From: an uncultured Lentisphaeria bacterium
Lineage (GTDB): Bacteria > Verrucomicrobiota > Lentisphaeria > Victivallales > UBA1829
Reading direction: 5' to 3'
NCBI GenBank assembly: GCA_949282305.1
Contig: CASDPB010000053.1
Location: forward strand, 16,710 to 80,709
DNA: 64,000 nt
Position numbers and translations under genes: made by a program. Of this stretch, positions 3,735 to 64,000 are shown piece by piece (positions within the stretch are counted from its first letter, which is position 1; each line of letters starts with the position of its first letter). Below the pieces are notes generated by a model. It saw only the letters and a list, made by a program, of their open reading frames with translations. It did no database searches and was not told where the DNA came from.

Positions 3735-3747
3735 AAGGAAGGAAAAC

Positions 3748-5956: not shown

Positions 5957-6853
5957 ATGAAGACATTCAGGCAGATTCTCAAGGAACGTTTTTCCCGGAA
6001 CCGGGCAAGTAGCACACAAAGAGAGGAAAAAAGCGGAATGCTGGAAATGAGGCGGGACAGAGGGGAGTTCACCCTGATAGAGCTCCTCGTGGTAGTTGCT
6101 ATTATAGCAATTTTGGCGGCAATGCTGCTCCCCGCGCTGAGCAAGGCGAGAGACAAGGCAAGAGATATTTCCTGTTTGAACAATCAGAAGCAGATGGGAG
6201 TGTTGATGGCAATGTACGCGGGAGAGAATCAGGACAAACTGCCGGCTTACACGGATAATATTGAAAGCGGCAGAGGCAAATGGCAGGATATGATTTTTGC
6301 TCTGTATGATCCTAAGACATATTACTCCGTCAGCAATCCGCGGGATCGCGATTTCATCCATTATGATGATCGCCGGGGCAGCAGTGCCACACTGCGGCCT
6401 TATGGTATTTTTGCATGTCCTTCCCAGCCTCTGCGGGCGGGCAAAGATACTTCGGAAGCCGGAGGCACGAAACATTATCTGGCAAACAAGTATATTTCCA
6501 ACAACACCCCGTCGGGTACTTGGAGTACCAGCAATCCGAATGATGAGCGCAACAAATACGCCACTCGTCTTCTGACGCGGATTAAAAACCCTTCGTCTGT
6601 GATGCATGTCTGCGACGGAGACCGCGGAACGGAGAAATATGAAGTGGCGATTCACATGAAGAAGTTCATCGGCGGCAATACCGGTGCTTCTGATGCGTAT
6701 GCCAACATCAATTTCGGCGGACCTTACAGACATTCGAGCAAACGCGGTTTGAACACTCTTATGGCTGACGGTCATGCCAAGCCGACGCTGGCAAAGGATA
6801 TTCCCACCGGCTATGACAAGCCGGGCGGAAAATTCTGGTGCGGCAATAACTGA
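5957..6853 (+). CDS. Prepilin-type N-terminal domain protein (DUF1559 / H-X9-DG-like pseudopilin paralog), copy 1
   Basis: Contains [47 protein letters not shown] and the C-terminal motif [20 protein letters not shown]. The start is uncertain. Candidates are ATG 5957 (RBS GGGAGAG), ATG 6038 or 6047 (short leader typical of prepilins), and GTG 5915 (ORF track). Confidence 0.85.
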
Positions 6854-6991
6854 GTTTTCGAGTTTTCGACAGTGCTGTTTCAGAGGCGGCGGATGGGGAC
6901 GCAAACGCCGCCTCTGGAACTGGACAAAAATATAGAGGGAAATGGGAAAGTTGCAAGAGGAATAATAAAAAACGGGATTCGGAGGATGAAT

Positions 6992-7792
6992 ATGAGAGTG
7001 CATTCACAGGAAGTTTTTTGGGGAATTCGGATGAGTCATGTTGAAGATTCGAGGAGAAACAGAGGGAATTTTACCTTGATAGAGCTCCTCGTCGTGATTG
7101 CGATCGTCGCCATTCTTGCGGCGATGCTGTTGCCCGCTTTGAACAAGGCGAGAGACAAGGCGAAAGACATCAGCTGTATGGCGAACATGCGTCAGCTCGG
7201 GCTTCTGATGAACTTTTACACGGACAACAACAACGGGCAGTTCCCGAAAGCGAACGGGCTTTTAAACAGCGGTCCCGGAAGCTGGAGCGGAAGCGGACGC
7301 TGGCAGGATGGACTGTATGCCATGAAGACCAATAAGACGCTCGCAAACAGACTGCACTGGCAGGCGCAGGACAACACCACGCTGACCCGTCCTTATGACG
7401 TCTTTGCCTGTCCCGCTTCGAGAGATATGCCCTGGAACAGCGATGGCGTCTATGGTTTCATGGGGCATTACCTGATTAATTCCTACATCGGCAACTATGG
7501 AATGGACGCATGGGCGAAGGAATATGCCGCATTCAATGTCAAATCCGTGAGACAGCCCTCCAGGACAATGGAGCTTATTGACGGAGCATCGGAGAGGCGG
7601 ACTGACGGCACTTCCCCGTGCTGCGACACCAAATCCCAGCTTACCATAAATGGCGGAAAATATCGCCACCAGGCAAATACAGGGGTGAACGTTCTCTTTA
7701 TCGACGGACATGCGGAAGCCATGACTCACAACAAGATTCCGACCAATGTCTTGGTAAGCGACGGAACACCTTTCTGGGGCAACAGGAAGTAA
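6992..7792 (+). CDS. Prepilin-type N-terminal domain protein (DUF1559 / H-X9-DG-like pseudopilin paralog), copy 2
   Basis: Contains [47 protein letters not shown] and the C-terminal motif [20 protein letters not shown]. Start candidates are ATG 6992 (GGAGG 6 nt upstream), ATG 7031 and GTG 6872. Confidence 0.85.
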
Positions 7793-7941
7793 TGTTCCCT
7801 TCTGCCGGGAGAAGGACGTCGCAAGTCCGAAGCACCGCGTCCTTCTTCCGTATGAAAGCATAAGGATTTTTCAGCTCAGCAGTTTTATTTTGTGGTCATT
7901 ATGAATATAATAAATTAAAAGACAAGGGAAAGTTTTTAATT

Positions 7942-36224: not shown

Positions 36225-38270
36225 TTAATCCTTGCTAAGAATATCTGAGCAGATGTTTTTGCCACGGAAAATATAACTTCCCGTATTACTGTTGACCGTT
36301 TTCCCGGTCAGGGAATGGAAACCCGGCGGCAAGGTGATTTCTGCTTCCGCTATGCCGGGACCGATACCGCAGATCAATACCCGCTGTGCTCCGTGCCCGT
36401 CATCAAATCGTGCGGCGTAAACCTCCCCGGAAATCGTTTTTACCGGTAACTGTTCAGGTGGAATATCAGACAGTATGAATGGTTCCAGTTTACGTAGATT
36501 TCGGGCGATGCGACAAACTTGCGGCCAGCGTTTTTTGAATTGATTCGGATCTGGACCTTGGAGCAGATCAAAGTAGGAATACATGATGAAGCCTTTGGAA
36601 CCGAAAATTGCTTCCAGCAAACACATAGACATGATTTCTTCTTCTGTTGGATAGCGAAATTCGGTCAGATAGACTTTCAGGTTGTTGACTGCTGTCGGAC
36701 GGTAATTGCCGACATTGAAGATTTGCGGGACGGTCCAGAGCGGCATTCCGTTATGAGAATTGCACAATACACGCCGGGCACTTTTCATAAAACGCAATAC
36801 TTCTGACATATTTTGGATATCAGCGCGAGCAATTGGGTAGGGGTCAATTCCGAGAATATCGTAACCGGAAGCATAATATTGCAGATTTTCTTCCTGGAAG
36901 AGTACAGAAAGAGTCGGATGTCCGGGGTCCAGACGATTGACCAGACGGCGCCGTTCCAGCAGGGCTTTAATCCGATTCGTATGAAGTTCATCACATATAT
37001 ACCAAGCCAATAGTGCCGGATGACTTTTCCAGCGTTCAACGATTGCCTGTATGATTCGGTCTGCCCCCTCGTATCCTTGCCATTTCAGCCATTTGGAATC
37101 GTAGGGTTCAAAAGGGTAGACCTGAGTAAATGAGAAGATCAGTTTCAGCCTGTTTTCCGCCAAGCAATCCATTACGGCATCAATCGCTTCCAGACCGTTT
37201 TTACCGGGATACTTCAGTTCCATGCTGTTGTAGGATAGTACACAGTTGAAACCGCCATTGGCAATCATTTTTATCTCTGTCGGACTCATCTGCCCCGTAT
37301 AAAGTCCTATAGGCATGAACGGTTTCCCGTTTACGATAGTACGTCCGAGCTCATCTATTGAAACTCTATTCGCCTGTTTTCCTGCAATAATTTGCAGAGG
37401 AATATTTTTTTCAGCCAGAATATAACAGTTTGCTGTATCAAGCAGCTTCATATGCAATTCCATTGTTCCTTTCGGCAACTTGCCGGGATGAATTAAAATC
37501 CGATTGTTATTTATTGGTGAAATCGTATGGAATAATGAATTGCCGTCTTTTCGGATATCCACCCATGCCTGATATATGGGGGATCGCCGCTGTTTATAAT
37601 CGAATATTCCCACGACGAAAGAAGATAGTTCAAGTGTTGCAGTATTGTCACAGTCAATTATTTCCTGTATCGGCATGATTAATCCGGTATACCAGTTACC
37701 CCCGTTTTCTTCATATAGAAAGGCATCATCAAATATTGCGGTTCCGGTCGTTCCGGGTCGTAGATAAAGTGCAATGGAATAATAATAGTCCGGATTCGCA
37801 ACAAAAGTTTGTTCCAGTTTGGTCCAGTCGGAGTTCCCCCGCAGGTTCTTCAGATAATAGCCACTCACATATTTTCCTGTTTTACGATCGCTCCATTCAA
37901 GACAGACACTTGCGCCTTCTCCTTGGACTGTATGTGTTTTTACCCACATGCCGAAGCGGTATTTGACGCCGGGCTTCAAATTGCGAAGTGGAATTCCCGG
38001 TAGAATATATGAGTCCGGAGCAGTTCGCCGATAGAGCAGAGCATTGGTGTAACTTCTGCCGATTCCTTTTTCAACGCTGATCCCGTGTTTACCGATGTTT
38101 TGCCAACCATGTTCTCCTTTTTCAAAATCTCCGTTTGGAAACAGATTGATTCGTTCTTTCAACTGACTGGAAGATAATCTCTTATAATTCTCCAATGTAA
38201 TTTCTTCCGCAGTCGTGTTCAGGATGGATAACAGAGTAGCCAGAATTATCATGTAAGTGGAAGTTTGCAT
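36225..38270 (-). CDS. Secreted CBM4/9-like plus TIM-barrel glycoside-hydrolase-like protein (family unknown)
   Basis: 681 aa with low G+C. Hydrophobic N-terminal signal [25 protein letters not shown]-like module (NGDFEKGEHGWQNIG...AIFDDAFLYEE). A TIM-barrel-like region (GFNCVLSYNS, LAWYICDELH, ILGIDPYPI). Its start overlaps the upstream stop by 1 nt (TAATG). Confidence 0.55.
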   Translation of the reverse strand: MQTSTYMIILATLLSILNTTAEEITLENYKRLSSSQLKERINLFPNGDFEKGEHGWQNIGKHGISVEKGIGRSYTNALLYRRTAPDSYILPGIPLRNLKPGVKYRFGMWVKTHTVQGEGASVCLEWSDRKTGKYVSGYYLKNLRGNSDWTKLEQTFVANPDYYYSIALYLRPGTTGTAIFDDAFLYEENGGNWYTGLIMPIQEIIDCDNTATLELSSFVVGIFDYKQRRSPIYQAWVDIRKDGNSLFHTISPINNNRILIHPGKLPKGTMELHMKLLDTANCYILAEKNIPLQIIAGKQANRVSIDELGRTIVNGKPFMPIGLYTGQMSPTEIKMIANGGFNCVLSYNSMELKYPGKNGLEAIDAVMDCLAENRLKLIFSFTQVYPFEPYDSKWLKWQGYEGADRIIQAIVERWKSHPALLAWYICDELHTNRIKALLERRRLVNRLDPGHPTLSVLFQEENLQYYASGYDILGIDPYPIARADIQNMSEVLRFMKSARRVLCNSHNGMPLWTVPQIFNVGNYRPTAVNNLKVYLTEFRYPTEEEIMSMCLLEAIFGSKGFIMYSYFDLLQGPDPNQFKKRWPQVCRIARNLRKLEPFILSDIPPEQLPVKTISGEVYAARFDDGHGAQRVLICGIGPGIAEAEITLPPGFHSLTGKTVNSNTGSYIFRGKNICSDILSKD

Positions 38271-39013
38271 TAGAAGTACATCCTTATTCCGTTTTCACTC
38301 CAAAATATGAATGGTTTGGTTAAATCAAATTCCCGTCCTATTGGGGATAGTTCTATGCCATGTCTGGATTCCACATGCAAATCTCCGTACGTAGCATTGA
38401 CACTTTGCGAGTGGCGTGCATGCATTGCCGCCGAAGTGTCTAATGAAGTTTTCTGTGCGCGAAACCACCAATTCTGTAACTGATTGGCGTTCCTAGTGTC
38501 AGCGAAAATTATTTGCCTGGTCGGATTCAGCAGTTTGTTTATCGCAATATTGCAGGTGGTAGTATCATTTGCCGCAGTGTGTCCTCCTCCTCTGTAATAA
38601 AGAAAGGTATTCAGACCGTAGCCACATGGTTCAGTTCCATTCAAGGTTGATTCCTGGGTGTAATAAGGCGGATAGGTCGGGCAGGCAAATAGTTTATATG
38701 CGCCTGATCTCAGATAATCGTCATTGTCGTCAGCTTTAGATACTGAACCATAATAACCGTTTCTGATTAACAGATTATACCAGAATGAATTACTGTCTTT
38801 ATATATATATTTACCGGCAAACGTGACATCGTTATTATCATTGAGATACATTCCGGTTATTGTTCCGATTTGTTTCAGGTTGCTGACACATTTGATGCTC
38901 ATAGCCTTTGCCTTGGCTTTGTTTAATGACGGCAATAGCAAAGCAGCTAAAATGGCGATGATCGCAATTACGACAAGCAGTTCTATCAATGTGAAATTTT
39001 TCCGTTTCCCCAT
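38270..39013 (-). CDS. Prepilin-type N-terminal domain protein (DUF1559 / H-X9-DG-like pseudopilin paralog), copy 3, divergent
   Basis: 247 aa with very low G+C. It starts [50 protein letters not shown]. The C-terminal motif is a variant, [18 protein letters not shown] (GDLH instead of DGH). Confidence 0.85.
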
Positions 39014-39063
39014 TCAGCAGTCCTCCGTTTTTGTTGAATTTTATTTTTCCTGATTTGCTGTTT

Positions 39064-40152
39064 TCAAATTTCGTCACAAGTCTGCGGCGCTTCCTTCAGT
39101 TCCGCTACGGATTCACCTTCCCTGATAGTCAGGCCGATATAATCAATCGAATTCATTTCCGGATCGTTCCTGCGGCGTTCAAAAAGATTCCATGCCAGCT
39201 CCATGATCTTTGCCGTGGAGTTCACGACTGAAGTCGGCTTCGGGTGCAGATCATCCCGTTCCAGACCGTCCGAGGAGATGAGGGATATGTCCCTGCCGAT
39301 TGTCAGCCGCCGCTGTTTCATATACTCATAGACATTCTTCAGGAACCAGTCGCTTACCACCAGAGCCGTCGGTTTCGGGGAAGAGGCAAACATGGCGTCC
39401 AGACGCTCGCAGAGCTGTTCCCGTTTCTGGGAGTAGTGTATGACCCACTCCGGACGGACCGTTAAACCGTTTTCGCTCATGAAGCGGTAGAAGGCTTCAC
39501 GGCGCAGCAGGTCTGTGAGGCTGGCAAAGCCCAGATCCACCGTATGGATGAACCCGATCCTGCGGTGTCCGTGCCGGAACAGATACTGCAGCTGCATTTC
39601 GACCAGCTCCGGCGCATCAATGACTGCCGGTCCCGTATTCGGATAATACCGCGGCAGCACTACCGCATAGTTGATTCCGTGATGATCGAAAATTTTCTGT
39701 ATGTCATTGTGATGGGGCATCATCAGCAGGGCGTTCCTGATATTGTATTTGGTTATGATCTCCTCATATTCTGATATCGGCGCATACCAGCTGATCCGGT
39801 GAAAGCGCGGAGTGAGCTGATGCCGGGCGGCACCGGCAAGAAAATGGTTGATGAGCTCCATCGCAAAATTGTCCGTCTCGACGTAGCTGATTTCGGAACA
39901 GGCGACCAGGTCGATGATATGAAGGCTTTCTTCATGAATCCTTTCCGTCAGGTAAATGCCGGAGCGGGCACGGGTTTCCAGAACTTTGTCGTGCTTCAGC
40001 TTGCGGATGGCGTTTTCCAGCACATTGCGTCCCAGCTGAGATTCCTGCTGCATCCGGCGGAGCGGCGGCAATGCTTCTCCGGCGTTTAAATTCACCAGAC
40101 ATTGCCGTATATACTCTTCCGCCTGTCGATTCTTTATGTCTCTGATGCTCAT
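39064..40152 (-). CDS. Transcriptional regulator: GntR-type winged HTH fused to a LacI/PBP1-type sugar-binding domain
   Basis: 362 aa. The N-terminus (LPPLRRMQQESQLGRNVLENAIRKLKHDKVLETRARSGIYLTE) is GntR-like. The C-terminal part resembles the LacI effector domain (ALVVSDWF..., IGRDISLISSDG). Confidence 0.7.
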   Translation of the reverse strand: MSIRDIKNRQAEEYIRQCLVNLNAGEALPPLRRMQQESQLGRNVLENAIRKLKHDKVLETRARSGIYLTERIHEESLHIIDLVACSEISYVETDNFAMELINHFLAGAARHQLTPRFHRISWYAPISEYEEIITKYNIRNALLMMPHHNDIQKIFDHHGINYAVVLPRYYPNTGPAVIDAPELVEMQLQYLFRHGHRRIGFIHTVDLGFASLTDLLRREAFYRFMSENGLTVRPEWVIHYSQKREQLCERLDAMFASSPKPTALVVSDWFLKNVYEYMKQRRLTIGRDISLISSDGLERDDLHPKPTSVVNSTAKIMELAWNLFERRRNDPEMNSIDYIGLTIREGESVAELKEAPQTCDEI

Positions 40153-52584: not shown

Positions 52585-52992
52585 ATCGCAGATAACCCCC
52601 TTCCAAGGTGTGTTGAAAATTAAACCGAAAACGGAAGTTTAATCGGAAGAGGATACGCGGAAAGACTTGACGACACAACAGGGATGACACATCATTTCCG
52701 GACAGGAAATGCCGTTCATACCCCTTTGCAGAAACCTTTCGGGCGTGTCAAGCCGCTTTTTCAGCGGCATCCGGCGAGCCGGATGACTTGGAATCCATCT
52801 TCGGATTAAGGCTTCCCATATCGGGATTCGATTAATTTAACACATTACGGAAAAAAATCAATGACTTTTTTGACTTTTTATCCGAAAAATCAGGGTCTGC
52901 TCCGACGCGGCTGCTTCCGGGGAAGGGGGGCAGGGGCGAATGAGTTTGCAAAACATGCGGGCATCGCGGAGCCGGACCCGTTTCCTTCAATG

Positions 52993-53030
52993 AAAAATGT
53001 CCGGAGGAAGTCTCCGGACATTCGTTTTTC
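52993..53030. terminator. Bidirectional rho-independent terminator (serves the 53065..54573 gene on the minus strand)
   Basis: An 11-bp stem AATGTCCGGAG / CTCCGGACATT (52996-53006 / 53012-53022) is flanked by an A-run on one side and TTCGTTTTTC on the other. Confidence 0.65.
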
Positions 53031-53064: not shown

Positions 53065-54573
53065 TCAGACGCTGACATGTTCCCCGTCCTTGCCGCATAC
53101 CTGCTTCAGCAGTTGGGCGACGCCGGATTCAAACAGCCGCTGCCACTCCGGACCCAGGAGGCATTCCGTTACCTCATAGCCGCCTCCGTCATATAATTCC
53201 GCAGGCGGGCCGTAATGGAGATACCCGTTGGTATACCCGACAGTCAGTGTCGGTGAAAACGGACTCATTTTCTTAATGTCCTGCCCGATCTGTGTGAGCA
53301 GCTCCGCCGCGGAGGTCACAATGGCGGCGTTGTTGATTCTGATGACCTGGATTTCCGTGGCGATCGTCGTTTCTCCGCTGGCGGCATTGAGTCGCTGATG
53401 TTTCTCCAAAGTCGCCAGGTCGTCCTGAATCTGCGCCAACTCCTCCATCGCGGCAATGTTGCTCAGATATTTTTCGATATTCATGCGGTTGAGGTGATCC
53501 ATATCCCGCCATCCGGTGTATCCGTCCGCATCAGCCTGCAGATATTGAAAGGCGTCTGTCAGCGGATAGTCCGGCTCCAGCCGGTAATGCAGCAGCAGAA
53601 GAAGAAAATTCTTGAAGTTCAGCGGACAGTAATGCAGTTGTTCCAGCAATTCCTGCTGCCGCCGTCGCAGTGCGGCAGTTTTCTCGTCGACGTCGGTGCG
53701 GCGCGGAAGCCGCAACGTTGCAACTGCGCAGCGGACGGCTGCCTCCGGGGTTGTTTGTATTGCCGAAGCTGCCGGGACAATCTGCAATGCGATCAGTTTT
53801 GCCGGTGTTTTGACGTCGCGCGGATGCAGGAAGTCCTTGAACCCGCGGTCGATGACATCCCCGGCGCATCCCTGCAGAAAGAACGCCGTGGCTCCGTTTC
53901 CAAGCAGCTGTTCCAGTGTTGCGGAGATTTCACCCGGGAAGTTCGCCGTGAGACTGCCGTAACAGTCCCCGAACAGCGGATGACAGCCGAAGTTGTATAC
54001 CAGTGCCAGAGGCGTGCCGTCTGCACGATCCACCCGGATCAGCCCGATTTCATTGTCGATCGGGCGCACAGCCTCAACCCGGCAATCCGCCGGAGTCGGA
54101 TTCGTGTGGCGGATGGCGCAGTCCTTTCCAGTTTTCAGCTTCAGATTGCGGTTGATCGCCACGGGGGGGAGTTCCGCTTTGCCGAAACCGATGCGTGCGG
54201 GAACCAGACGGCTCAGGGCTTCACTGCATGCCGCTGTGATTCTCCGCAGCTGTTCCGCGTCATCGCAGAGCAGCTGCCCCGCCGGGTGCGTGTGGGAGGC
54301 GTTGACAACCACGCCTTCCGCGGGGATGTTCCATTGCCGCATCAGGTATTCGCGCAGAGCGGGAACCAGGCCTTCCCCGCCGTCCGGCAGAATGCCGTCG
54401 CTGATGGCGCGTCCGCCGACTGCCGTAACGTCTATGGTGACGAAGACAAGCGTCTGTCCGTCCGCCTGCAGGACCAATATTCTGGCATAGAGCGGATCCA
54501 GCACTTTTCCCGATGGGTGCGGATTTGTCAATTCGGTTCTGGCTGTTGCCGCCATCATTGTCTGTGAGTTCAT
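53065..54573 (-). CDS. Hypothetical hydrolase, neutral/alkaline ceramidase N-terminal-domain-like
   Basis: 502 aa with no signal peptide. LDPLYARILVLQADGQTLVFVTIDV and VVNASHTHPAG resemble the ceramidase_alk N-domain pattern (weak, from memory). The start abuts the upstream stop (TAAATG). Confidence 0.45.
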   Translation of the reverse strand: MNSQTMMAATARTELTNPHPSGKVLDPLYARILVLQADGQTLVFVTIDVTAVGGRAISDGILPDGGEGLVPALREYLMRQWNIPAEGVVVNASHTHPAGQLLCDDAEQLRRITAACSEALSRLVPARIGFGKAELPPVAINRNLKLKTGKDCAIRHTNPTPADCRVEAVRPIDNEIGLIRVDRADGTPLALVYNFGCHPLFGDCYGSLTANFPGEISATLEQLLGNGATAFFLQGCAGDVIDRGFKDFLHPRDVKTPAKLIALQIVPAASAIQTTPEAAVRCAVATLRLPRRTDVDEKTAALRRRQQELLEQLHYCPLNFKNFLLLLLHYRLEPDYPLTDAFQYLQADADGYTGWRDMDHLNRMNIEKYLSNIAAMEELAQIQDDLATLEKHQRLNAASGETTIATEIQVIRINNAAIVTSAAELLTQIGQDIKKMSPFSPTLTVGYTNGYLHYGPPAELYDGGGYEVTECLLGPEWQRLFESGVAQLLKQVCGKDGEHVSV

Positions 54574-56616
54574 TTATTCACCTTCTGTCTCATTTGTTGA
54601 ATAATGTATTTTTTCTCCGTTCGGTAACGTGTAATCAAGGGTAAATTGCAAACCGTTGATCTTGAGTGGTTCCAGACGATACTGCTTCCAGCCGGGGAGC
54701 GTTGGCATGAGTCCGCACAAATGCCGGACAATCGCATTGGCGGGAGAGGCTCCCCATGGGTGTGCCCAGCTCATGTTTGCCTTCTGGCTGCAGTTCCATG
54801 CTTCTGTGGTGATGGTGGCGCCCGCCTTCAGCATGTTGCGCCAGGAACACGGACCGTCGTCGAGCAAAAGGGCGAGTGCCTGTTCCGCACGCCCGTATTC
54901 AAACAGGACATCCAGCACATATTGGGCATTGTAGATGCCGCACGCCATGCCTTTGGAGACAATGAAATCTACAACGTTTTCACAGTCCTCCGGGGGAACC
55001 ACCCGGTTCCATAATGCCCATACATTGGTATGCAGGGACGAATGGCCGCTTCCCCGGTGATCGACGAACAGACGCCGCTCCGGGTTCCAGAATGCCGAGC
55101 GGATGACAGGGAGCATGGCATCCGCTGCCGGGGTGAAACAATCTTCTTCACCGATTTCCTTTGCCAGAAACGCCAGTTTGCGCAGGTTTCCATATAGAAG
55201 GAAATGCGGAATTGCCACATAATCGGCATCAATTTCACATCCGTCGCGCAGGTTTATCGGCCAGTCGACGATAATTTCGAGGGGGAAGCGTTTCACGAGT
55301 CCGTTTTCCAGCAGATGGAGATAGGACGCTTTCCGCACCAGCTCCTTCCAGTTCTCCCGGATTGTTTCCGCATCGGCGGTGTGCATGTAATATTCATAGT
55401 ATACCGGAATCATCATCTGCATCCACTCGCATGGCCAGGTCGGATGGGAGATCATATATTTCACGCTGCGTTTGGCTGCCGGAGCCGCGCTGTCAACGGC
55501 GAAATTGGCGAGCATGTTCACATAGGAGTCCGCTTCATAGCAGATCCGTTCCCGTGTAAAACAGTCCGTATAAAGATCCATTGCCGTCGCCTCCACCGTA
55601 TAACGGCATAGTTCCCAGATGCGGTTCAGCTCCGGATTGCTGGAAACAAAGCGGACCGCGTCCGATCGGAACGGTGCGTGAATCACCCGGCGCCGGAAAT
55701 TTTCCCGGCTCAGCTCCCCGGGGAAGCCATGCACTTCCGCATAGCGGAATTCCCGGACGCCGAAATGCGACAGTGTCTGCCCCGCGCGTGCGAAGTGCCA
55801 CAGTTCCTGATAACAGGTATCAGCTCTCAATTGGAATCTGACACATTTGTCGTTCATGAGTTCCTCGCCCAGACGCAGTTCGACGTAAGCCGCTTCCGGC
55901 GCGGTCATTTCAATCTGCGCGATGGCTTCCCTGCCGAAGTCAATGAGGAAGGAACCATTGCCGAGCGGAACGATGCGCTCCGGAGATTCCGGTTCGATCC
56001 GGTAGTTCCATTCCGCCTTTTCCGGGACGCCTTCCCACTGTTTCGGGGTGCACTCTTCCCAGGAGGAGTCGTCGAAACCGGCGTTCATCCAGCCTTCCGG
56101 TTCAAATTCCCCCTGGAGATGTTCAAATAATTCTCCGGGGCCGATGTCTCCCTTGAAGTAACTGCTGATTTCGGGACGTGTCCAGCAAACCGGGGACAGG
56201 AACTCATTGGCACTGCATTGGCGGAACGCGGAAGCCGAATCCGCAATGACCTGTCCGCCCGCCCGGATCTCGATGGCGATTCCCTGTTGTTCCATGCGCA
56301 TGAGACATGCGATGACGTGTTTCCCGGAGGCGAGGCTTCCTGCCGGAAAGATGTGTTCAACCCGGTTGCCGTTGCGAATGCCGCGGAACGGACCGACTCC
56401 CAGCCTTTTCCCGTCCAGAAACAGGTGATACTTGATGAAGCTGCCTCCCATCAGCCAGTTGCCGTCGTTGCCGTCGCTTCGGAGCTTCTGGCAGTAGGCG
56501 CAGACATAGGAATGGGCGTCCGCTGTCACCGCAATGGTAACGGGGCCCGTCCCCGTGTCCGTCTCAAATTCTCTGCGGCAGAACTTCTGTCCCGGACCGC
56601 CGATAAAATAACGCAT
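54574..56616 (-). CDS. Alpha-L-rhamnosidase-like (GH78-type six-hairpin) glycoside hydrolase
   Basis: 680 aa. The C-terminal region TTEAWNCSQKANMSWAHPWGASPANAIVRHLCGLMPTLPGWKQYRLEP resembles the conserved end of bacterial GH78 catalytic domains. The assignment is by eye. Confidence 0.55.
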   Translation of the reverse strand: MRYFIGGPGQKFCRREFETDTGTGPVTIAVTADAHSYVCAYCQKLRSDGNDGNWLMGGSFIKYHLFLDGKRLGVGPFRGIRNGNRVEHIFPAGSLASGKHVIACLMRMEQQGIAIEIRAGGQVIADSASAFRQCSANEFLSPVCWTRPEISSYFKGDIGPGELFEHLQGEFEPEGWMNAGFDDSSWEECTPKQWEGVPEKAEWNYRIEPESPERIVPLGNGSFLIDFGREAIAQIEMTAPEAAYVELRLGEELMNDKCVRFQLRADTCYQELWHFARAGQTLSHFGVREFRYAEVHGFPGELSRENFRRRVIHAPFRSDAVRFVSSNPELNRIWELCRYTVEATAMDLYTDCFTRERICYEADSYVNMLANFAVDSAAPAAKRSVKYMISHPTWPCEWMQMMIPVYYEYYMHTADAETIRENWKELVRKASYLHLLENGLVKRFPLEIIVDWPINLRDGCEIDADYVAIPHFLLYGNLRKLAFLAKEIGEEDCFTPAADAMLPVIRSAFWNPERRLFVDHRGSGHSSLHTNVWALWNRVVPPEDCENVVDFIVSKGMACGIYNAQYVLDVLFEYGRAEQALALLLDDGPCSWRNMLKAGATITTEAWNCSQKANMSWAHPWGASPANAIVRHLCGLMPTLPGWKQYRLEPLKINGLQFTLDYTLPNGEKIHYSTNETEGE

Positions 56617-56710
56617 GTTCCAACCTCTTGTGCTTTTGAATCAGATTTTATCTTTCATTGTTCTGTTTTTATTCAGCCCCGGCAATCCCGCCGGAGCTGA
56701 TGAACGGTTC

Positions 56711-59700
56711 CTATTTTTTCTGTGTTTCCTGGGATACGGCGCCGAGTCCCTGCGGGGTTAACGGCACGACGATAATCGCCTGACCGTCGCGGATTTCCGG
56801 TGTGAGCACCTTGTCGTTCCATAGATCACGGTATACCGCGCCTTCCACATGCGGGACGGCCAGCACTTCGCCGCAGCGGCTCATCGGAGACGCATTCAAC
56901 AGCGTCCATACCATCCGTCCGTTTCCGGGGAAACGGTTCGCATAGACGTTGCCCATCCGGGTCTGCACTCTCGGTTCCGGATTTGCAGTGAGGAAGCAGT
57001 CCCGGTAGCGGTCTTTGATTGCCAGCGCCCGGTTGTTGCGTTCGCGCACGTTGCTTTCATGCAGGAACCAGGTGTCTTCGTGAAATACTTCGCCGTTGAA
57101 GAAGATATAGTCCACCTGCGACGGTTTGTTGCCGGCTTCGATTCCGCCGGGCAGACCGAAGAGCTTGTAATGCGGCAGCAGGTAGCGCACCGCCGCAAAC
57201 GGAGCCTCGAATCCCGTTTCGTTCCTCCGGTCGTCGATGTCATATACCGGTGCGAAAAATTCGTTCAGTTCCATGAAATAATAGGAAATGAATCCGTCGC
57301 TGTACATGGAGGCGGAGTCGGGCTGACCGTATTCCGTCCATAACGCGATGTCATCAGGGAGCGCTTGCCGGAGACGGCTCATGAACTTAATGTCGCCTTT
57401 GATCGAGTTGGATGGAACCTCGTGTCCGTGTTTGGGATTGTAGCACTTGGAATTGTTGAAAGAGCTGATTACATCGGAATAGAGGATTTTCGCTCCGGTG
57501 TCCCGCATCAGTTTGCTCAGATCCGCCACGGCGAAATCGACCCAGCGGTCGTAATTCAGGCAGGTGTAAGTTTCCTTTGCATTCGCCAGCGGCGTTCCGT
57601 CGGGATAATAGGTCAGTGCCGCATCCCGCAGCGGGAAGTCCGGCGGCATGTCCTTGTTTATGCACCGGTCGCTGACCGTATACAGTGAGATCGGGATTCC
57701 CTTTTCTTCCTGGAAATACCGGATCGCCTCCCGGAATTTCTTCAATCCGCCGGATTGACGGTAATAGGGTTCGCTGGACCAGTTGCCATACTGGAAACGG
57801 TCTTCATCATCGCTGTATGACCACCAGAGATGGACGAAATCCGGTTTGCGGCCGAGGTGCGATGTTTCAAAATCGACAACTTCATCAATATAGTACTTTG
57901 ATTTGTCTTTGGCAAGAATCGGCGGCACCTTGTAAAAACGCCATGCCAGCGTATTGGTTGTGTGATAACAGGTATTTACAAGAGTGTTTCTGAAGAACGG
58001 CTTGTTCTGCGATTTCACCGGTTTGTAAAAGCTGTCCAGGAATTTCCGGTAGATCGCCATTGCCGAATGCCAGTCACCTTCATGAGGCTGCCAGCGTATT
58101 TCCGGCAGGTTCCGGCTTTGCCCCGGCGCGAGTTTGGAGAACAGCTCCTGCAAGTTGACGGACCCGGACAGGCCGGAAGCGCGTTTTGCGGCGCGGTATT
58201 CGTTTTTCGCGTTGTCGCGATTGTCGCACAACACCATCAGCCCGCGTCCCAGTTTCGGATTGTAGAAGTCGAAAAACATGTGCATGAATTCCTGCCCGTA
58301 AGCCGACCGGTAGGTTGCGTCGGCTGCCGACACCTCGGCACGGAAACGGGGGAAAAATATCATGTCGTCTTCGGTTTTCCCGATTTTCAGATCCTGAACC
58401 GCGCCGGCGGATGCCATGACCGTCGCCTCGGCGCTGCCGGTGTTCCGGATTGTCCCGTTCCAGATCAGATCCCCAGTATTTCCGGGACGCAGCCGCAGTG
58501 CAAGCCGCAGACCGCGGATGCCGTCGGCGTCGCCACGCAGATTGACTACCGCCTCATTTTTCGTGATTTTCGCGTCATCGACTTTGAAGCTGCGGCCGGT
58601 AAACCAGTCATTGCCGGATTTGAGCAGTATTCCGGACGCCGGATGCAGACTTCCGCCGGGAACGCCTGTCGTGGCAAAGCCATGCCGCAGATCGAAACGG
58701 TATTCACCGATGGCGAGCTGTCCGTCGCGCAGGGTGATTTCCGCTTTCCGTTCTTTCGGGATGACCGGAGCCAGTTCAATTGCCGGTGCCGGGTTGCGGA
58801 AGGCGTCAAGCAGTCTGCCGTTCTGCGCCAGTGTCAGGGCGGCCAGATAAAAGTCAATCGAATAAGACGGGAAATGCAGGATCAGTTCGCGCAGTTCCCG
58901 ATTGGGATTCAATGCCACGGCATACGCTCCCGCAGTGCGGCCGGAAATGTAGAAGGCGCGGTTTTCCACCGAATAGGGGAATGCCGTTTCTCTGCTCCCG
59001 TCGGCATAATGCAGTTCAACATGAAAGTTTTCCATGTCGTCAAGTCGCAGCGGGCGGTTGGGGGACGCATAGCGGCGCTGAGACGGATTATTGATTCCGA
59101 AGAGCAGCAGATAGGCCTCTCTGGCTGTTTTGCCGACAGGAATCACAATCCGGTCTTTGCGGGACAGCGGCGCAATATTTTTGCGGGTGCCGGTTTCCCC
59201 GAGGAAGGGGAACGTTTTCCGGTTGGCGCTGTCGTCAAAGGGCGGTTTGACCAGATTGTTGCCGGTGGTCTGCACCCGGAACGGGATTCCCGCCCATCGG
59301 ATTTCCGGGGAGGAGAGCGCGGGCAGGGCGTCCTGCAGGATGGCATATTTGTCCAGCCCGTCGCGGTAGAGATTCTTCAACTGCGTGTTGAACAGCCCGT
59401 TCAGGGGGATGGCGTCAAATCCCGTTTTCGGGAAGGCTTCCGCACTGGCGGTCAAGGGCAGTTTTGAAGTGAACTGCAGATCGGCGATTTCCAGAGAAGC
59501 CCGGGAATAGTTGGTTTTCAGATTCACCTGCAGCGCCGTTGCCGTCATGCCTTTGGGGATTCTTCCCGTCACAGTGTGAAATTCCCCGTCGTCGAATGCC
59601 GTGGCTGTATTCAGCAGATCAAGCGTCACCGCATTGGATGAGGCGCCGGTTCCCTTCAGCTGGACGACTCCCGCAACCGGAGCCATCCGCAGTACTCCCC

Positions 59701-60538
59701 GTGCCCGGTAGCGGATGGTGTAATACGTGACATTTTCCAGTCGGCGCGGCTGTTCAAAATTGGTTTCCCAGCTCATGGCGCGGACGGTTCCGGCTTCCCC
59801 GTTGACGGTGAAGTGTGCGACTCCGTCTTTCTCCTGAAACTGAAAGGGCACGGTCTGACGGACTTCCCTGCCGTCCACCGTCCGGGTGAGAACCGGCATT
59901 TCCGCAGATGCCACCGCTCCCGGTGCGGGCGTCCATCCCGAACACCAGTTGATCGGCTGCTGTCCTATGGCGACACTTGGTTTTGTCCCCGCGCGCGGAG
60001 TTCCGACACGGAGTTCCTTGAAAAAGACTTCGCCCGGACTGGTCAAATCCAGCCGGACCCGGATGGACGCCGAATTTTCGGGCACGGTGAATTCCCCGGC
60101 AATCGTGTGCCACTGCCCGATGACCATGTTGTTGTGAAGAATATGAGCCAGCACCGTCGGCTTGCCGTCTGCGTCGAAGCTGTAAATTTCAATGCCGATG
60201 TGCTGTCCGGGGACAAATGCCGAATGCCGGACGCTGACACTTGCCTGATAGGGACCTCCGGGCGGCAGTTTCACCGGCGGACGCAGTTCCCATGCGCCGT
60301 AGCCGTTGTCCTGTTTTTTCGCACGGATTCCCAGCAGGCCTTCGCTGGACCCGACATAGCTGATGAATCCGGTATAATTTTCCGGGCTGTTTGTACAGTA
60401 AACATATCCGTTGGGAGCGGTTTTTCCCGCATCCACTGCGGTTTCAGTGCGCCCGACAAGTCCTGAAGTATTTTCCTCGGCGGCACAGACTCCGCCGATC
60501 CAGCCGCACAATACGGCAATGATCGTCTTTTTCCACAT
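56711..60538 (-). CDS. Large secreted protein (1275 aa), CBM-like N-terminal module plus uncharacterised TIM-barrel-like C-terminal half
   Basis: Signal peptide MWKKTIIAVLCGWIGGVCAAEE. The N-terminal beta-sandwich-like region ends in EVFFKELRVG. The C-terminal half carries HLWWSYSDDEDRF..., ILYSDVISSF...CYNPKHGHE and ALWTEYGQPD. No family was recognised. Confidence 0.6.
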   Translation of the reverse strand: MWKKTIIAVLCGWIGGVCAAEENTSGLVGRTETAVDAGKTAPNGYVYCTNSPENYTGFISYVGSSEGLLGIRAKKQDNGYGAWELRPPVKLPPGGPYQASVSVRHSAFVPGQHIGIEIYSFDADGKPTVLAHILHNNMVIGQWHTIAGEFTVPENSASIRVRLDLTSPGEVFFKELRVGTPRAGTKPSVAIGQQPINWCSGWTPAPGAVASAEMPVLTRTVDGREVRQTVPFQFQEKDGVAHFTVNGEAGTVRAMSWETNFEQPRRLENVTYYTIRYRARGVLRMAPVAGVVQLKGTGASSNAVTLDLLNTATAFDDGEFHTVTGRIPKGMTATALQVNLKTNYSRASLEIADLQFTSKLPLTASAEAFPKTGFDAIPLNGLFNTQLKNLYRDGLDKYAILQDALPALSSPEIRWAGIPFRVQTTGNNLVKPPFDDSANRKTFPFLGETGTRKNIAPLSRKDRIVIPVGKTAREAYLLLFGINNPSQRRYASPNRPLRLDDMENFHVELHYADGSRETAFPYSVENRAFYISGRTAGAYAVALNPNRELRELILHFPSYSIDFYLAALTLAQNGRLLDAFRNPAPAIELAPVIPKERKAEITLRDGQLAIGEYRFDLRHGFATTGVPGGSLHPASGILLKSGNDWFTGRSFKVDDAKITKNEAVVNLRGDADGIRGLRLALRLRPGNTGDLIWNGTIRNTGSAEATVMASAGAVQDLKIGKTEDDMIFFPRFRAEVSAADATYRSAYGQEFMHMFFDFYNPKLGRGLMVLCDNRDNAKNEYRAAKRASGLSGSVNLQELFSKLAPGQSRNLPEIRWQPHEGDWHSAMAIYRKFLDSFYKPVKSQNKPFFRNTLVNTCYHTTNTLAWRFYKVPPILAKDKSKYYIDEVVDFETSHLGRKPDFVHLWWSYSDDEDRFQYGNWSSEPYYRQSGGLKKFREAIRYFQEEKGIPISLYTVSDRCINKDMPPDFPLRDAALTYYPDGTPLANAKETYTCLNYDRWVDFAVADLSKLMRDTGAKILYSDVISSFNNSKCYNPKHGHEVPSNSIKGDIKFMSRLRQALPDDIALWTEYGQPDSASMYSDGFISYYFMELNEFFAPVYDIDDRRNETGFEAPFAAVRYLLPHYKLFGLPGGIEAGNKPSQVDYIFFNGEVFHEDTWFLHESNVRERNNRALAIKDRYRDCFLTANPEPRVQTRMGNVYANRFPGNGRMVWTLLNASPMSRCGEVLAVPHVEGAVYRDLWNDKVLTPEIRDGQAIIVVPLTPQGLGAVSQETQKK

Positions 60539-60561
60539 AACAACTCCTGATTAAAAATGTA

Positions 60562-61437
60562 TCACTCAACACCGGTTTTGCAAGTAATGGTTCCGGAAAT
60601 GAACTTCTGCGCTTGAAGTCCTTCGGCATGACCGTCAAACAGCAGGGCATTCGTCTTTCCGCGCGCCAAGGCAACAGTAGCAGTGGATACAAGCCATACC
60701 CTTCCATCTCCACCTCCGTGACGGTAGGAAAACCACTGGTAATTCTGCGCGACTGCATAATCATACGCCAGACTGTCTGCGCAGAAAATGGCCTGAGAGG
60801 CTGATTTTACCTGATTTGCGCGTTTTGCGCCGCCACCCGATGCTGTCCAGCCGGTAAGATAGCCGTTGGATTCATTGCTCCATACCAGGCAGCAGTTGAT
60901 TGCGTAATGAGTTGCATAATAGGCCTCGCCGCCTACAATTGTGCCATTGATGGGTTTCTTTTCCGTAGGGCATACGAAGGTGGAGTTCTGGGTGGTGTTT
61001 TTTGAGGTATTCTGGTCGTAATAAGTGACGCCGTAATTGGTTGTTGCGTTGCATACGGGAGCTCTGCCTGCCAGCACATTGTACCATCCGGTCGTCCAGT
61101 GCATATTGGCACCGCTTGTAGTCGGCTGATTGCCCAGTATGATCCAATCGTCAAAATCTCCGGAGTACATTGCCTGGGCGGAACCGATGGTTTTCAAATT
61201 GTTCAGGCATTTTGCATTCTGGGCCATTGCGCGCGCCTTGTTCAAAGCGGGAAGAAGCATGGACGCTAAAATTGCTATAATAGCAATTACTACGAGGAGC
61301 TCTATCAAGGTGAAAAATCCTGTTTTTCCCCTGCTGAGCAGGAACGGATTTTGACGATCCCGGCACTGCCGGAATGAAGCTCCCCTCAGAAGCATTTTTT
61401 CATGGGGAGTCCCATCAATCTGAAAAACTTTCTGCAT
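60562..61437 (-). CDS. Prepilin-type N-terminal domain protein (DUF1559 / H-X9-DG-like pseudopilin paralog), copy 4
   Basis: Contains [48 protein letters not shown]. The C-terminal motif YRHGGGDG...[11 protein letters not shown] has a longer spacer. Start candidates are ATG 61437 (AGGAAAGGA upstream) and ATG 61395. Confidence 0.85.
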
Positions 61438-61470
61438 TTCCTTTCCTTTCTGTCATTTATCATTGTAAAT

Positions 61471-64000
61471 TTAATCGAGTCGGTAGATTCGAGTCTGGGG
61501 ACGGTCAGATGTAAAGCGAATACAGGTCTCCTTTCCTGGTTTTCTGGTTTCCGGATATATTTGAGTGACGGTTCCGGGCCTGGGCAAAGTGATGACCCGT
61601 TCGCCCGCGTCGCGGCCGGTATGAATCGCCAGATAGTTTTCACAGACGTAAACCGCGTCATAGCTGTTCAGGTAAATGTGAACTCCGGCGTTCTGCGCCA
61701 TCGCCCGCAGAATTTGCGGGGGAAGCATCGGAAATGCGGCGTAATAGTGCGTGACGCCGTCCGCCTGTTTTTTGCGCGCCAATCCGATCTCCTGAGACAA
61801 GTGCAGACGCGCCAGAGGCTCCGCCGTGCCGTCGCGCACGACGAAGATCGGATCCTGTCGGTCTTCGTCGAACATGCCGAACGGCGTATGAAAGTCCCGG
61901 AGCAGGGGATTTCCCGGAATCAGGCTCATTTTTGTATCCGCTGGATTGTGGATGATTTCCAGGTTCATGCCGGTCAATTTCCGGATATGGTTCAGATCCT
62001 GTGTTTTTCCGTCTATGTAGCCCGGAGCATAAAACCATAATGCCGTGGCGCCGTTCCTTGCCAGTTTGCGCTGAACCGCCTGGCGTTCTTCCGGCGTCAG
62101 ACAGAAAACGTTCAGGAAAATGTAGAATTTATAATCCGGCATTGCGTCGTTGAGGAACACATCGACCAGATATTCCTCGAAGGGCGCGCCGATCCTGCCG
62201 ATGCCCGCACGCTGGAAGAATCCCCGCGTTCCCGCCTGATCCGTAAACACATAACGTTTTTCCTGGCGGATGTAATGGAACGTCTTGTCGCTGGCGATCA
62301 CCGCGATTTCACTGACCGGCGCCAGAGAACTGTGTTTGACGGCATAATCCCCGAGCGCCTGAAGTTTTTTCAGTTCCGTCAGATAGGTCACATCATCAAA
62401 CCAGTTGCGCTGATCCGTCCCGAATTCATGCAGATACATCAACGCTCCCCCTGTCAGTGCCTTGGCGAATTCCCGCGCCAGCACCTGAACGCTTTCTTCC
62501 GGACGGCGGATTGAATACGCATATTCCCTGGGATACAGGTGGGTACGCAGGTCGTCTTCCTGAATCCACAGCTTGTTGTACATCCGGAGCATGGAAGGCG
62601 TCGGATAGTCGAAACTGGCGACTCCGCCGAGATCGCGGAACCACCAGCGGTATTCCACCGGCCCGCAGAAGAAATCAATGTCGGGACACTCCAGCAGCGG
62701 CTGTTGGTTCACGTAGCCCGCCAGTTCTGCGATGTAGCCGTCGCCGACGTCGGCAAGGTGTCCGTAGAAATATCCCACCAGCGATTCCCGGTTTGTTTCT
62801 TCCTTGATGATTCCGGCGTACAGTTCCAGATTGTCGTTGATACATTGCGACAGCGCTTCCCCGTAATCAATGGCATTCCGATGGAGCTGCGGGTCGCGGA
62901 ACATTCCGGTTCCGGGGGCGATCCGCTCTTCCCTGCTCGGGATTGTCGCCGTTTCCAGTGTGACGTGAGGATTTCCCCAGGCTTTCCGCAGCATTTCGTC
63001 ACTGCCGTATTTTCTGGCGAGCCAGTTGCGGAAATAACGCAGCATCGGGGCGCTGTAATCGCTGAAAGTTCCCGGTTTTCCGGGATCGCTGCCGCCCCAG
63101 TGATGCAGCCATTGCCCTTCCTCGCCGCCGCAGGGAACATATCCGACGACCCGGTCGGCGTATGGACCGGAGCGGACGTGCCGCACCAGTTTTCTTACTG
63201 CATTGCCTGCCACGGTATGCCAGCGTTCGGAGGCAAGAGACGGTTTATTGAATCGGGTGCCGTTGTCGAACACTGCCAGTTCTTCCGGATATTTCCGCTG
63301 GAAGAAGTTGTCGACAATGCCGCGGTCCATGTAGAAACAAAGAACCAGAAGAGTCTCCGGATTGTCCGCCAGGACTCTGCCCACATGTGCGTCGATTGCC
63401 GCAAAATCGACTTCGCCGTCATCCTTGATTGTCATGTTGGCAAGGATGCGCGCCACTCGTCCCCCGGCTTTATGAAAAGCGCGGATCATCGTGGTCTGCA
63501 TAGGATACCCGGCGGCGTAGGGGACGGTGTAAAAGATATTCCACATGGCTTCTCCGTTGACCGTCCAGGTCGGCATATTCCCTTTTCCCCGCCGGATTTC
63601 CGAGCATACCGGTTTCGGGTGCCGCCGGTTTACGACATGCACTTTGCGGGAAGCGGGGGCTCCGGTCAGTTCCGCAAACGGAAGATAAAGGGAAAATTCG
63701 TATTCTCCCTCCGGCCAGAATGCGTTGACGGGCAGCACCGTCTTCAACGTCAGCGTTTCTCCCCTGTCGCAGTCTGCAAGACGTTTTCCGTCGTCGAGGC
63801 GCAGTTCCAGAAAGAGCTGGCCTTCGCGAACGACCCGCAACCATACGGGAACCGGGCGCCGGATTTTTTCTTCCGGGGTCAGTTCCAGTTGTAAGGAAAA
63901 CTCCGTTCCGGCTGCAAGTTTTTCCGGAAAGACAGCCTGCTCCATGCGTATCCGCTGTTTCCCGACATACATGGTGTAGGGCACTTCCCCCCAGATCCCG
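61471..64000 (-). CDS. GH42-like hypothetical glycoside hydrolase (TIM barrel plus trimerisation-like domain), possibly 5'-truncated by the window edge
   Basis: The frame is open up to position 64000. Internal start candidates are GTG 63984 (ORF track) and ATG 63972. No signal peptide is seen from these starts. The C-terminal segment KFYIFLNVFCLTPEERQAVQRKLARNGATALWFYAPGY resembles the GH42 trimerisation (GATase-like) domain. The assignment is weak. Confidence 0.5.
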   Translation of the reverse strand, partial: GIWGEVPYTMYVGKQRIRMEQAVFPEKLAAGTEFSLQLELTPEEKIRRPVPVWLRVVREGQLFLELRLDDGKRLADCDRGETLTLKTVLPVNAFWPEGEYEFSLYLPFAELTGAPASRKVHVVNRRHPKPVCSEIRRGKGNMPTWTVNGEAMWNIFYTVPYAAGYPMQTTMIRAFHKAGGRVARILANMTIKDDGEVDFAAIDAHVGRVLADNPETLLVLCFYMDRGIVDNFFQRKYPEELAVFDNGTRFNKPSLASERWHTVAGNAVRKLVRHVRSGPYADRVVGYVPCGGEEGQWLHHWGGSDPGKPGTFSDYSAPMLRYFRNWLARKYGSDEMLRKAWGNPHVTLETATIPSREERIAPGTGMFRDPQLHRNAIDYGEALSQCINDNLELYAGIIKEETNRESLVGYFYGHLADVGDGYIAELAGYVNQQPLLECPDIDFFCGPVEYRWWFRDLGGVASFDYPTPSMLRMYNKLWIQEDDLRTHLYPREYAYSIRRPEESVQVLAREFAKALTGGALMYLHEFGTDQRNWFDDVTYLTELKKLQALGDYAVKHSSLAPVSEIAVIASDKTFHYIRQEKRYVFTDQAGTRGFFQRAGIGRIGAPFEEYLVDVFLNDAMPDYKFYIFLNVFCLTPEERQAVQRKLARNGATALWFYAPGYIDGKTQDLNHIRKLTGMNLEIIHNPADTKMSLIPGNPLLRDFHTPFGMFDEDRQDPIFVVRDGTAEPLARLHLSQEIGLARKKQADGVTHYYAAFPMLPPQILRAMAQNAGVHIYLNSYDAVYVCENYLAIHTGRDAGERVITLPRPGTVTQIYPETRKPGKETCIRFTSDRPQTRIYRLD

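Follow-up and report, generated by a model that had tools for sequence, protein, structure and literature searches.

Among the major degraders of complex glycans, in guts as in sediments, are Lentisphaeria and other bacteria of the Planctomycetes-Verrucomicrobia-Chlamydiae (PVC) group. Their genomes contain dozens to hundreds of pilin-like genes and, to our knowledge, they are devoid of SusC/D systems, which account for the foraging of glycans by Bacteroidota. Here we describe a locus, cassette C, made of five co-directional genes on the minus strand of a 64,000-nucleotide chromosomal stretch (contig CASDPB010000053.1; hereafter the window) from an uncultured gut Lentisphaeria (Victivallaceae-like). 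In this operon a pilin-like gene, the fourth copy of the window (pil4), is embedded among four genes for large glycan-enzyme-like proteins. The operon is otherwise an ordinary-looking glycan cassette; what sets it apart is the pilin-like gene within it, found at a conserved position.

Several described systems can be compared with this arrangement. Type IV pilins and the pseudopilins GspG and GspH share with Pil4 a hydrophobic alpha-1 helix, a Phe at position +1, a Glu at position +5 and a predicted helix of 50 residues. Pil4 nevertheless differs from them by the absence of Gly at position -1 (Gly-1), by a leader of 41 amino acids (aa) and by a head of ~225 aa without detectable similarity to solved heads; moreover genes of this kind stand singly among glycan enzymes and not in gsp or pil clusters, with four paralogues in the 64-kb window. 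In type IVa pili the large Sec-exported protein PilY1 (PilC) is encoded beside pilin genes and is presumably presented by minor pilins. The likeness with cassette C, by analogy, is that of a large exported protein encoded beside a pilin gene, but here a single pilin replaces the four-pilin set and the partner is a predicted glycosidase, not an adhesin. Polysaccharide utilisation loci of Bacteroidota combine, as here, a regulator, surface or exported enzymes, a non-catalytic specificity component and trimming enzymes of the cytoplasm or periplasm; cassette C, however, has no SusC/SusD or TonB-dependent transporter, and its non-catalytic component is pilin-like.

Within the PVC group, the family with an N_methyl segment plus a DUF1559 or H-X9-DG domain, as in Tuwongella immobilis, has the same architecture as Pil4 and the same C-terminal DGH motif, and this pilin-like family, like its tendency to lie beside secreted proteins, has already been described in Planctomycetes (PMC8567305). 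Pil4 departs from it in lying under the cut-off of the family profile (PF07596) and in the displaced His of its H-X9-DG motif. In the metagenome sample analysed, planctomycete-type members carry Gly or Ala at -1 (35/35) and their downstream neighbours with a signal peptide are mostly small (133-332 aa), whereas the Lentisphaeria members lack Gly-1 and are paired with giant predicted glycosidases. Pilus-like structures have also been associated with complex glycans in PVC bacteria at the Akkermansiaceae MUL2 locus (PMC13174399) and in planctomycete fibre uptake (PMC5394234), but in those cases one dedicated locus is involved, equipped with PilM and an archaeal-type pilin, whereas here there are dozens of paralogues, one per cassette. 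In the searchable literature we found no link between this pilin family and glycoside hydrolase (GH) operons of Lentisphaeria and no report of a missing Gly-1, and a 2025 review of Planctomycetota makes no mention of pilins.

In transcription order cassette C starts with a gene of which the window holds the 3' two-thirds (61471..64000, minus strand, 842 codons), the reading frame running off the window end. It is followed on the same strand by pil4 (60562..61437, 291 aa), by the gene of a secreted giant of 1275 aa (56711..60538), by that of a GH78 alpha-L-rhamnosidase-like protein of 680 aa (54574..56616) and by that of a neutral/alkaline-ceramidase-like zinc hydrolase of 502 aa (53065..54573). 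Read directly from the sequence, the successive intergenic gaps are 33, 23, 94 and 0 nt, the stop codon of the GH78 gene abutting the start codon of the ceramidase-like gene (TAAATG, 54571-54576). Shine-Dalgarno-like motifs lie ahead of both the 291-aa and the 1275-aa genes. In the 33-nt spacer that precedes pil4 (61438..61470, minus strand) this motif is AAAGGAAAGGAA, just 5' of the ATG at 61437, and the element is kept in an 87%-identical relative.

The operon is closed by an intrinsic terminator (~52987..53023, minus strand; 12-bp stem, 5-nt loop and U-rich tail; folding z = -3.2), whose hairpin is followed by UUUUUCAUU; it lies 42 nt beyond the last stop codon of the operon and the genes that come after it are separate housekeeping genes (prs, L25 and pth). 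A second 12-bp hairpin, GC-rich and without U tract, is found in the 94-nt gap (56673..56700, minus strand; minimum free energy -26.6 kcal/mol, z = -3.6). Placed where the exported half of the operon gives way to the cytoplasmic one, it may stabilise the mRNA or serve as a processing site. The length of this giant-to-GH78 gap varies, from 94 nt here to much shorter in relatives. An exact copy of the 291-aa protein exists in public data (P0017, present on a 239-kb contig as well), and its 17-kb contig, L014, shows the entire operon: the first gene is preceded by a 434-nt gap and encodes a protein of 1298 aa (L014:4516-8412). No transporter gene is present within the five genes. Direct reading of the junctions thus agrees with a preliminary description of this DNA for the gene order, the four gaps, the TAAATG junction and the single strong terminator. 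The operon length of 11 kb given there must be corrected to ~12.3 kb, the first gene being cut by the window edge and counted in full on L014.

The position of the pilin-like gene is conserved. In every relative of 51-89% identity, such a gene lies immediately upstream of the orthologue of the 1275-aa giant, which gives five lineages with a pilin-giant pair (L008, L009, L010, L012/L003 and L013/L002); a GH78 gene follows the giant in four of these (L008, L009, L010 and L003/L012). The synteny of pilin and enzymes, for which the preliminary description had wanted relatives to be scored, is therefore present in five Lentisphaeria lineages. Distant homologues of the giant (26-34% identity, including one from an Armatimonadia metagenome-assembled genome) have no adjacent pilin. 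On these contigs and beside the closest homologues of Pil4, pilins have other, unrelated partners: pectate-lyase-like, DUF4838/GH106, NPCBM/BNR sialidase and CBM_4_9 proteins, as well as signal-peptide proteins of 700 and 439 aa, often with a GntR-type regulator upstream. Most of these cassettes are without an adjacent transporter. No shared docking motif was found in the N- or C-termini of the pilin-adjacent exported proteins, of which only B_681 and L097_700 are homologous. In L013, the region just downstream of the giant (L013:14088-19784) carries two tandem pilins, then the genes of a 622-aa signal-peptide protein and of two proteins with CBM_4_9 and CBM9 modules respectively, which repeats the association of pilins with exported glycan proteins.

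The giant-adjacent pilins of L009, L010, L012 and L013 (L009:9205-9909, L010:7581-8264, L012:1519-2352 and L013:9168-9905) form one clade whose members are 37-66% identical, and have therefore been co-inherited with the giant. Pil4 and the giant-adjacent pilin of L008 belong to another subfamily, only 21-25% identical to that clade, and the GC content at third codon positions (GC3) of pil4 is 0.53 vs 0.66-0.68 for its neighbours. Judged from these sequence comparisons, pil4 is a non-orthologous replacement: the slot is conserved and its occupant has been replaced, while the flanking giants are orthologous.

All four pilin-like genes of the window, distributed over three glycan cassettes, adjoin a large signal-peptide-like gene (signal peptides were called here on hydrophobicity only, with a crude predictor). 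Cassette A (2754..10230, plus strand) is composed of a LacI regulator, a secreted GH42-like protein of 704 aa, two tandem pilins (5915-6853 and 6872-7792, plus strand) and a 762-aa sodium:solute-symporter-like protein. Its two pilin genes share a 173-nt stretch, 71% identical (6049-6221 and 7051-7223), in their helix-coding 5' part, and this is the sole long direct repeat of the window. Cassette B (36225..40152, minus strand) is composed of a GntR/LacI-type regulator, a pilin (38270-39013) and an overlapping gene for a 681-aa signal-peptide CBM_4_9 protein. The pilin and the enzyme of cassette B (36225-39013) have a GC content of 41-45% and a GC3 of 0.43-0.45, in a window of 54% GC and beside a regulator of normal GC. 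Judged by GC content, this pair appears to have been horizontally acquired as one unit. Hence the two earlier statements, that the pseudopilin stands directly beside a secreted protein bearing a carbohydrate-binding module (CBM) and that the association recurs in three cassettes within 64 kb, hold in the window, and the former also in relatives.

Gene-order shuffling was used to evaluate these adjacencies. For the window alone the 4/4 adjacencies have P ~0.013; for seven Lentisphaeria loci 13 of the 14 pilins are adjacent, where 4.7 are expected (P ~5e-5), several of these loci having been chosen via the giant protein and sharing the orthologous pair, so that they are not fully independent. 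The pilin lies directly 5' of the large signal-peptide protein on the same strand, and mostly -20 to +31 nt separate the two genes. These data bear on the possibility that there is no functional coupling at all, i.e. that abundant mobile paralogues land by operons in genomes where secreted enzymes are simply numerous. The family is indeed very large and scattered (PMC8567305), and pil4, being a replacement with a GC3 lower than that of its neighbours, denotes turnover at the site. But adjacency exceeds the shuffled expectation, the pilins are placed on the same strand with spacers of 18-31 nt or overlaps, the slot is kept by a pilin even after replacement, the cassette B pilin seems to have been imported along with its enzyme, and the pilins of the L009/L010/L012/L013 clade follow their giant by descent. 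We consider an absence of coupling very improbable.

Pil4 itself is composed of the basic 41-aa leader, a hydrophobic pilin-type N-terminal helix with Phe+1 and Glu+5, and the ~225-aa head, which bears a conserved Cys pair, an RHGGG motif and a C-terminal N-x-L-x-F-DGH motif. It passes the cut-off of TIGR02532 (22.2 bits vs 16.3), is just under that of Pfam N_methyl (20.5 vs 21.2) and remains below that of Pfam DUF1559/SBP_bac_10 (PF07596; 17.9 vs 23.3). Pil1 and Pil2 pass the cut-offs of both Pfam families, with 32.5 and 25.4 bits respectively for PF07596, while Pil3 has no match to the latter; precomputed PF07596 matches exist for the relatives P0025, P0029, P0030 and P0034. As regards the H-X9-DG motif, Ala replaces the expected His in Pil4 and the RHGGG motif lies ~30 residues upstream. 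The corresponding profile, TIGR04294, has no match at E <= 0.01 in any of 21 members, although a true H-X9-DG is present in the giant-adjacent pilins of L009, L010 and L013. In public annotation P0021, P0026 and P0028 are named H-X9-DG proteins by JGI, and one relative is named 'type II secretion system GspH family protein' by NCBI. A fragment of a gsp or pil operon was considered for pil4 and rejected, the gene being a singleton flanked by enzymes with no machinery genes nearby.

Conservation of the family is concentrated in the helix. Across 28 Lentisphaeria relatives, positions +1 to +28 are near-invariant, Phe+1 and Glu+5 are strict, and the heads are 21-40% identical. In the AlphaFold2 model of Pil4 (overall predicted local distance difference test score, pLDDT, of 62.7) the helix is confident at residues 3-53, while the head is mostly below a pLDDT of 70. 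Matches of Pil4 to sequences in the PDB (the type IV pilins PilA4 and PilE, and GspG) are limited to the N-terminal helix.

The exported partner of Pil4, the 1275-aa giant, has a classical signal peptide, a CBM4/9/22-like module (residues ~62-188), a middle region without known domain and a C-terminal GH36-like part. The preliminary description had called it a secreted CBM-bearing protein, and the signal peptide and the module bear this out. Pfam detects DUF6259 (6.5e-9) and, marginally, CBM_4_9 (2.3e-5), and the family profile matches the CBM22 of Xyn10B at 0.004; as single sequences, neither this protein nor the 502-aa one gave anything useful in direct PDB sequence searches, so that family profiles were needed. 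Residues 560-1275 were modelled with AlphaFold2 (pLDDT 83.5) as a beta-supersandwich, a TIM barrel and a beta-sandwich. With this model Foldseek returned GH36 structures at the top (8x1b, 9awt and 9ayu; E 1e-24 to 1e-25, template modelling (TM) score 0.63-0.70; E 1e-22 to 1e-25 for GH36 as a whole), followed by GH129, GH31 and GH101. Three Asp are invariant in the family (D1022, D1074 and D1081). Because its best structural matches are GH36 enzymes, the model suggests that the 1275-aa protein is a clan GH-D-like glycosidase, of predicted activity, in a family with no characterised member. It is alike in its three-domain fold, with the TM scores of 0.63-0.70 obtained on a Flavonifractor GH36 galactosaminidase, but it is only 10-14% identical to GH36/clan GH-D enzymes, sequence searches yield just DUF6259, and it has ~560 additional N-terminal residues. 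The family is small and nearly restricted to Lentisphaeria and Victivallaceae metagenome-assembled genomes, which provide the nearest relatives and bear out an origin in Victivallales/PVC bacteria.

The 1298-aa protein encoded upstream of pil4 has a hydrophobic, signal-like N-terminus, clearer in the orthologues of L008 and L010, then a CBM-like beta-sandwich, a CBM67-like rhamnose-lectin domain and a GH42-related TIM-barrel region. A profile made from four sequences matches PDB lectins (6t0q/6kbj) at 3e-15 over residues 327-463 and, over residues 328-468, residues 140-298 of SaRha78A (3w5m) at 3.6e-12, a stretch which we take to be the CBM67 of this GH78 enzyme. The protein thus carries a CBM67-like domain of the L-rhamnose-binding type, sugar binding being predicted. 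The same profile gives weak collinear matches to GH42 structures (3tts at 3.4e-4 and 6y2k at 0.011), and homologues at 30-34% identity (E 1e-44 to 1e-61) carry PF02449 (GH42). Neither the window fragment nor the full-length L008 orthologue has a Pfam GH42 match, and the L010 orthologue reaches 15.8 bits with PF02449 vs a cut-off of 21. We therefore regard the protein as probably related to GH42, short of established membership: of the earlier label 'GH42-like' the relationship stands, through profile and homologues, but not a Pfam assignment of the fragment itself. Its being a paralogue of the GH42-like protein of cassette A was rejected, BLASTP between the two showing no similarity.

The last two proteins of the operon agree with their earlier calls as GH78-like and ceramidase-like. 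In the 680-aa protein Pfam finds Bac_rhamnosid6H (PF17389) at 111.9 bits (cut-off 24.5, 5.3e-32) and the concanavalin-like Bac_rhamnosid (PF05592) at 30.5 bits (cut-off 22.2, 3.6e-7). By its domains it is a clear GH78 alpha-L-rhamnosidase, with predicted activity. The 502-aa protein taken alone has 20.5 bits with the Pfam ceramidase family (cut-off 32.1). It belongs to a family of 5658 representatives, and a profile of 26 members matches the neutral ceramidases 2zws (5e-31) and 4wgk (8e-28), all 26 members matching PF04734 (best 1.2e-20). H94, H96, H198, E424 and Y454 are invariant in the family and constitute the zinc/catalytic set, aligning to HtHsgp, the H of fpvHst, PaE and the Y of YasYv; the C-terminal tail domain of ceramidases is missing. 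The protein is thus predicted to be a neutral-ceramidase-like zinc hydrolase, i.e. a cytoplasmic amidohydrolase. All four proteins that flank or follow the pilin are carbohydrate-active or plausibly glycan-processing, as the HMM searches proposed earlier were meant to decide.

Inspection of the N-termini revealed no signal peptide in the GH78 or in the ceramidase-like protein, which fits a division of labour between outside and inside. The preliminary description had attributed a signal peptide to the 1275-aa protein only and judged the other proteins cytoplasmic: this is right for the GH78 and the ceramidase-like protein and wrong for the 1298-aa protein, whose N-terminus on L014 is also signal-peptide-like. 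As to the substrate, we infer a rhamnose-bearing glycan because a CBM67-like module, a GH78 enzyme and a nearby fusion of aldolase_II and short-chain dehydrogenase occur together. The fusion (29968-31896) has the architecture of the rhamnulose-1-phosphate aldolase/dehydrogenase type and adjoins a GH2 glycosidase (32087-33895), which is consistent with rhamnose catabolism.

The reading that we favour, tentatively and at somewhat less than an even chance, is that the pilin-like protein is an adaptor by which the neighbouring giants are exported or displayed by way of a machine of the type II secretion or type IV pilus-like kind. The protein would insert in the inner membrane by its near-invariant FTLIELL... 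helix and would join a shared filament of one of these machines. The divergent head would then act as a cassette-specific adaptor that carries or presents the translationally coupled giant(s) across or onto the outer membrane, a step analogous to the presentation of PilY1/PilC by minor pilins. Once exported, the enzymes would attach to the polymer and cleave it extracellularly, the oligosaccharides would enter by a transporter encoded elsewhere, and the GH78 and the amidohydrolase would trim them in the cytoplasm. The combination of a near-invariant helix with hypervariable heads fits many heads served by one common filament machine, and the close placement of pilins 5' of exported giants agrees with partners that interact physically. 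The pilin-giant pair kept in five lineages, the independent pairings with other exported glycan enzymes, the excess of adjacency over shuffling and the apparent joint import in cassette B speak for this reading as well. In Planctomycetota type II secretion is up-regulated on fucoidan (PMC11685898).

Several observations weigh against the adaptor. No gene for an assembly ATPase, a platform protein, a prepilin peptidase or a secretin is present in the 64-kb window, and we know of no cargo-specific pseudopilin in any type II system. When Foldseek was run with the Pil4 model, the N-terminal helix of PilA4 was matched and nothing was matched by the head. That pil4 is a replacement beside conserved giants is awkward for an enzyme-specific head and makes a tight co-evolution of pilin and enzyme less credible. 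A transporter, and not an exported enzyme, is encoded after the pilins of cassette A. The leader of Pil4 is atypically long, and Gly-1 is absent from all of the 28 non-redundant Lentisphaeria relatives (0/28), only one having Ala (1/28).

Position -1 was compared on a set made of the window copies (61314 for pil4, and 6068, 7070 and 38995), L008-L013, L039, L047, L056, L071 and P0018-P0034. The residue is Phe in Pil4 and Glu, Asn and Asn in Pil1, Pil2 and Pil3 respectively; among the Lentisphaeria members it is variable (R, N, T, C, H, I, E, K, F...) and conservation starts sharply at Phe+1. Gly or Ala is found at this position in all 35 of the other, planctomycete-type, DUF1559-like metagenomic relatives. 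Canonical prepilin peptidases require Gly, rarely Ala, at -1. In this lineage the absence of Gly-1 implies that processing is either non-canonical or does not take place.

Type IV pilins typically have short basic leaders (~5-30 aa), and leaders of 4-6 aa are found in Pil3 and in many relatives. A gene-calling artefact was rejected for the 41 residues of Pil4, since no ATG, GTG or TTG occurs within 27 codons of the helix and the ribosome-binding site and ATG are conserved in a relative. The leader of the L008 orthologue (8339-8540) is longer and holds a degenerate FSLMELL... segment, and in P0022 a decayed duplicate (FTLIELLV...) precedes the genuine segment by ~60 residues. These segments and the Pil4 leader (61315-61437) resemble vestiges of 5' ends of pilin genes that were duplicated, possibly by recombination between paralogues.

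Alternatively, the protein may not be cleaved, may form no filament and may work as an inner-membrane-anchored periplasmic binder, as a chaperone for the giant or as a sensor that feeds the regulator or transporter of its cassette. The lack of Gly-1 in the 28 relatives and leaders that are variable, basic and sometimes long speak for this alternative, as do the filing of DUF1559 by Pfam as SBP_bac_10, the position of the cassette A pilins directly ahead of a symporter-like membrane protein, and the fractionation of planctomycete family members with membranes (PMC8567305). A plain anchor would nevertheless tolerate far more variation than is seen: a strict Phe+1/Glu+5 and a sharp boundary at +1 are what cleavage followed by filament assembly predicts. 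Most cassettes, in addition, have no adjacent transporter. We consider an uncleaved anchor unlikely.

The head could alternatively be lectin-like and bind the polysaccharide itself, in a glycan-capture pilus whose filament tethers the polymer, or retracts with it, so that it reaches the surface enzymes or the periplasm, as a functional analogue of SusD. The surface capture attributed to the pseudopilin in the preliminary description would be of this kind, one among several conceivable roles. Such a function would have parallels: a type IV-like pilus has been proposed for attachment to fucose-rich glycans in Akkermansiaceae (PMC13174399), pili-like fibres accompany dextran uptake in Planctomycetes (PMC5394234) and glycan-binding modular minor pilins exist (PMC9934059). 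The presence of one pilin per substrate-specific cassette, often behind a sugar-type regulator, agrees with it, and a swap of the pilin with the enzymes kept is easier to conceive if the head recognises a glycan and not an enzyme. Yet no carbohydrate-binding domain was found in the Pil4 head by Pfam, NCBIfam, PDB profile or fold searches, the neighbouring enzymes already bear CBMs of their own, and capture meets the same problems of machinery and Gly-1 as the adaptor. This makes a capture pilus rather improbable in our estimation.

Two further observations concern the rest of the window. A DUF790 gene adjoins a gene for an XPB/ERCC3-type helicase (25407-28367), and this neighbourhood on a bacterial chromosome presumably resembles the pairing of the Bax1 nuclease with the XPB helicase. 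Five open reading frames have no Pfam match at E <= 0.001 (10529-12793, 17610-19097, 15934-17130, 23280-24260 and 88-1056; 754, 495, 398, 326 and 322 aa respectively), and some of them may not be real genes.

Returning to the adaptor and extending it to the lineage, cassette C may exemplify a distinct type of polysaccharide utilisation locus in Lentisphaeria, in which each cassette brings its own pilin head to one filament machine through an invariant helix, with a maturation, by a peptidase or another mechanism, independent of Gly-1, so that the giants of that cassette are specifically exported, displayed or fed. We hold this generalisation to be doubtful as it stands. If true, it would represent a cargo- or substrate-specific pseudopilin system without characterised precedent, and a counterpart of SusC/D or of the C-terminal tag of type IX secretion. 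The operon also provides two candidate GH families without characterised member, that of DUF6259 with its GH36-like fold and that of the GH42-related giant with a CBM67-like domain. Finally, the systematic placement of these pilins in glycan cassettes, their co-travel with the enzymes, as in cassette B, and an invariant filament-type helix without Gly-1 ahead of it turn this abundant gene family into a testable hypothesis on the export or display of enzymes or the capture of substrate.

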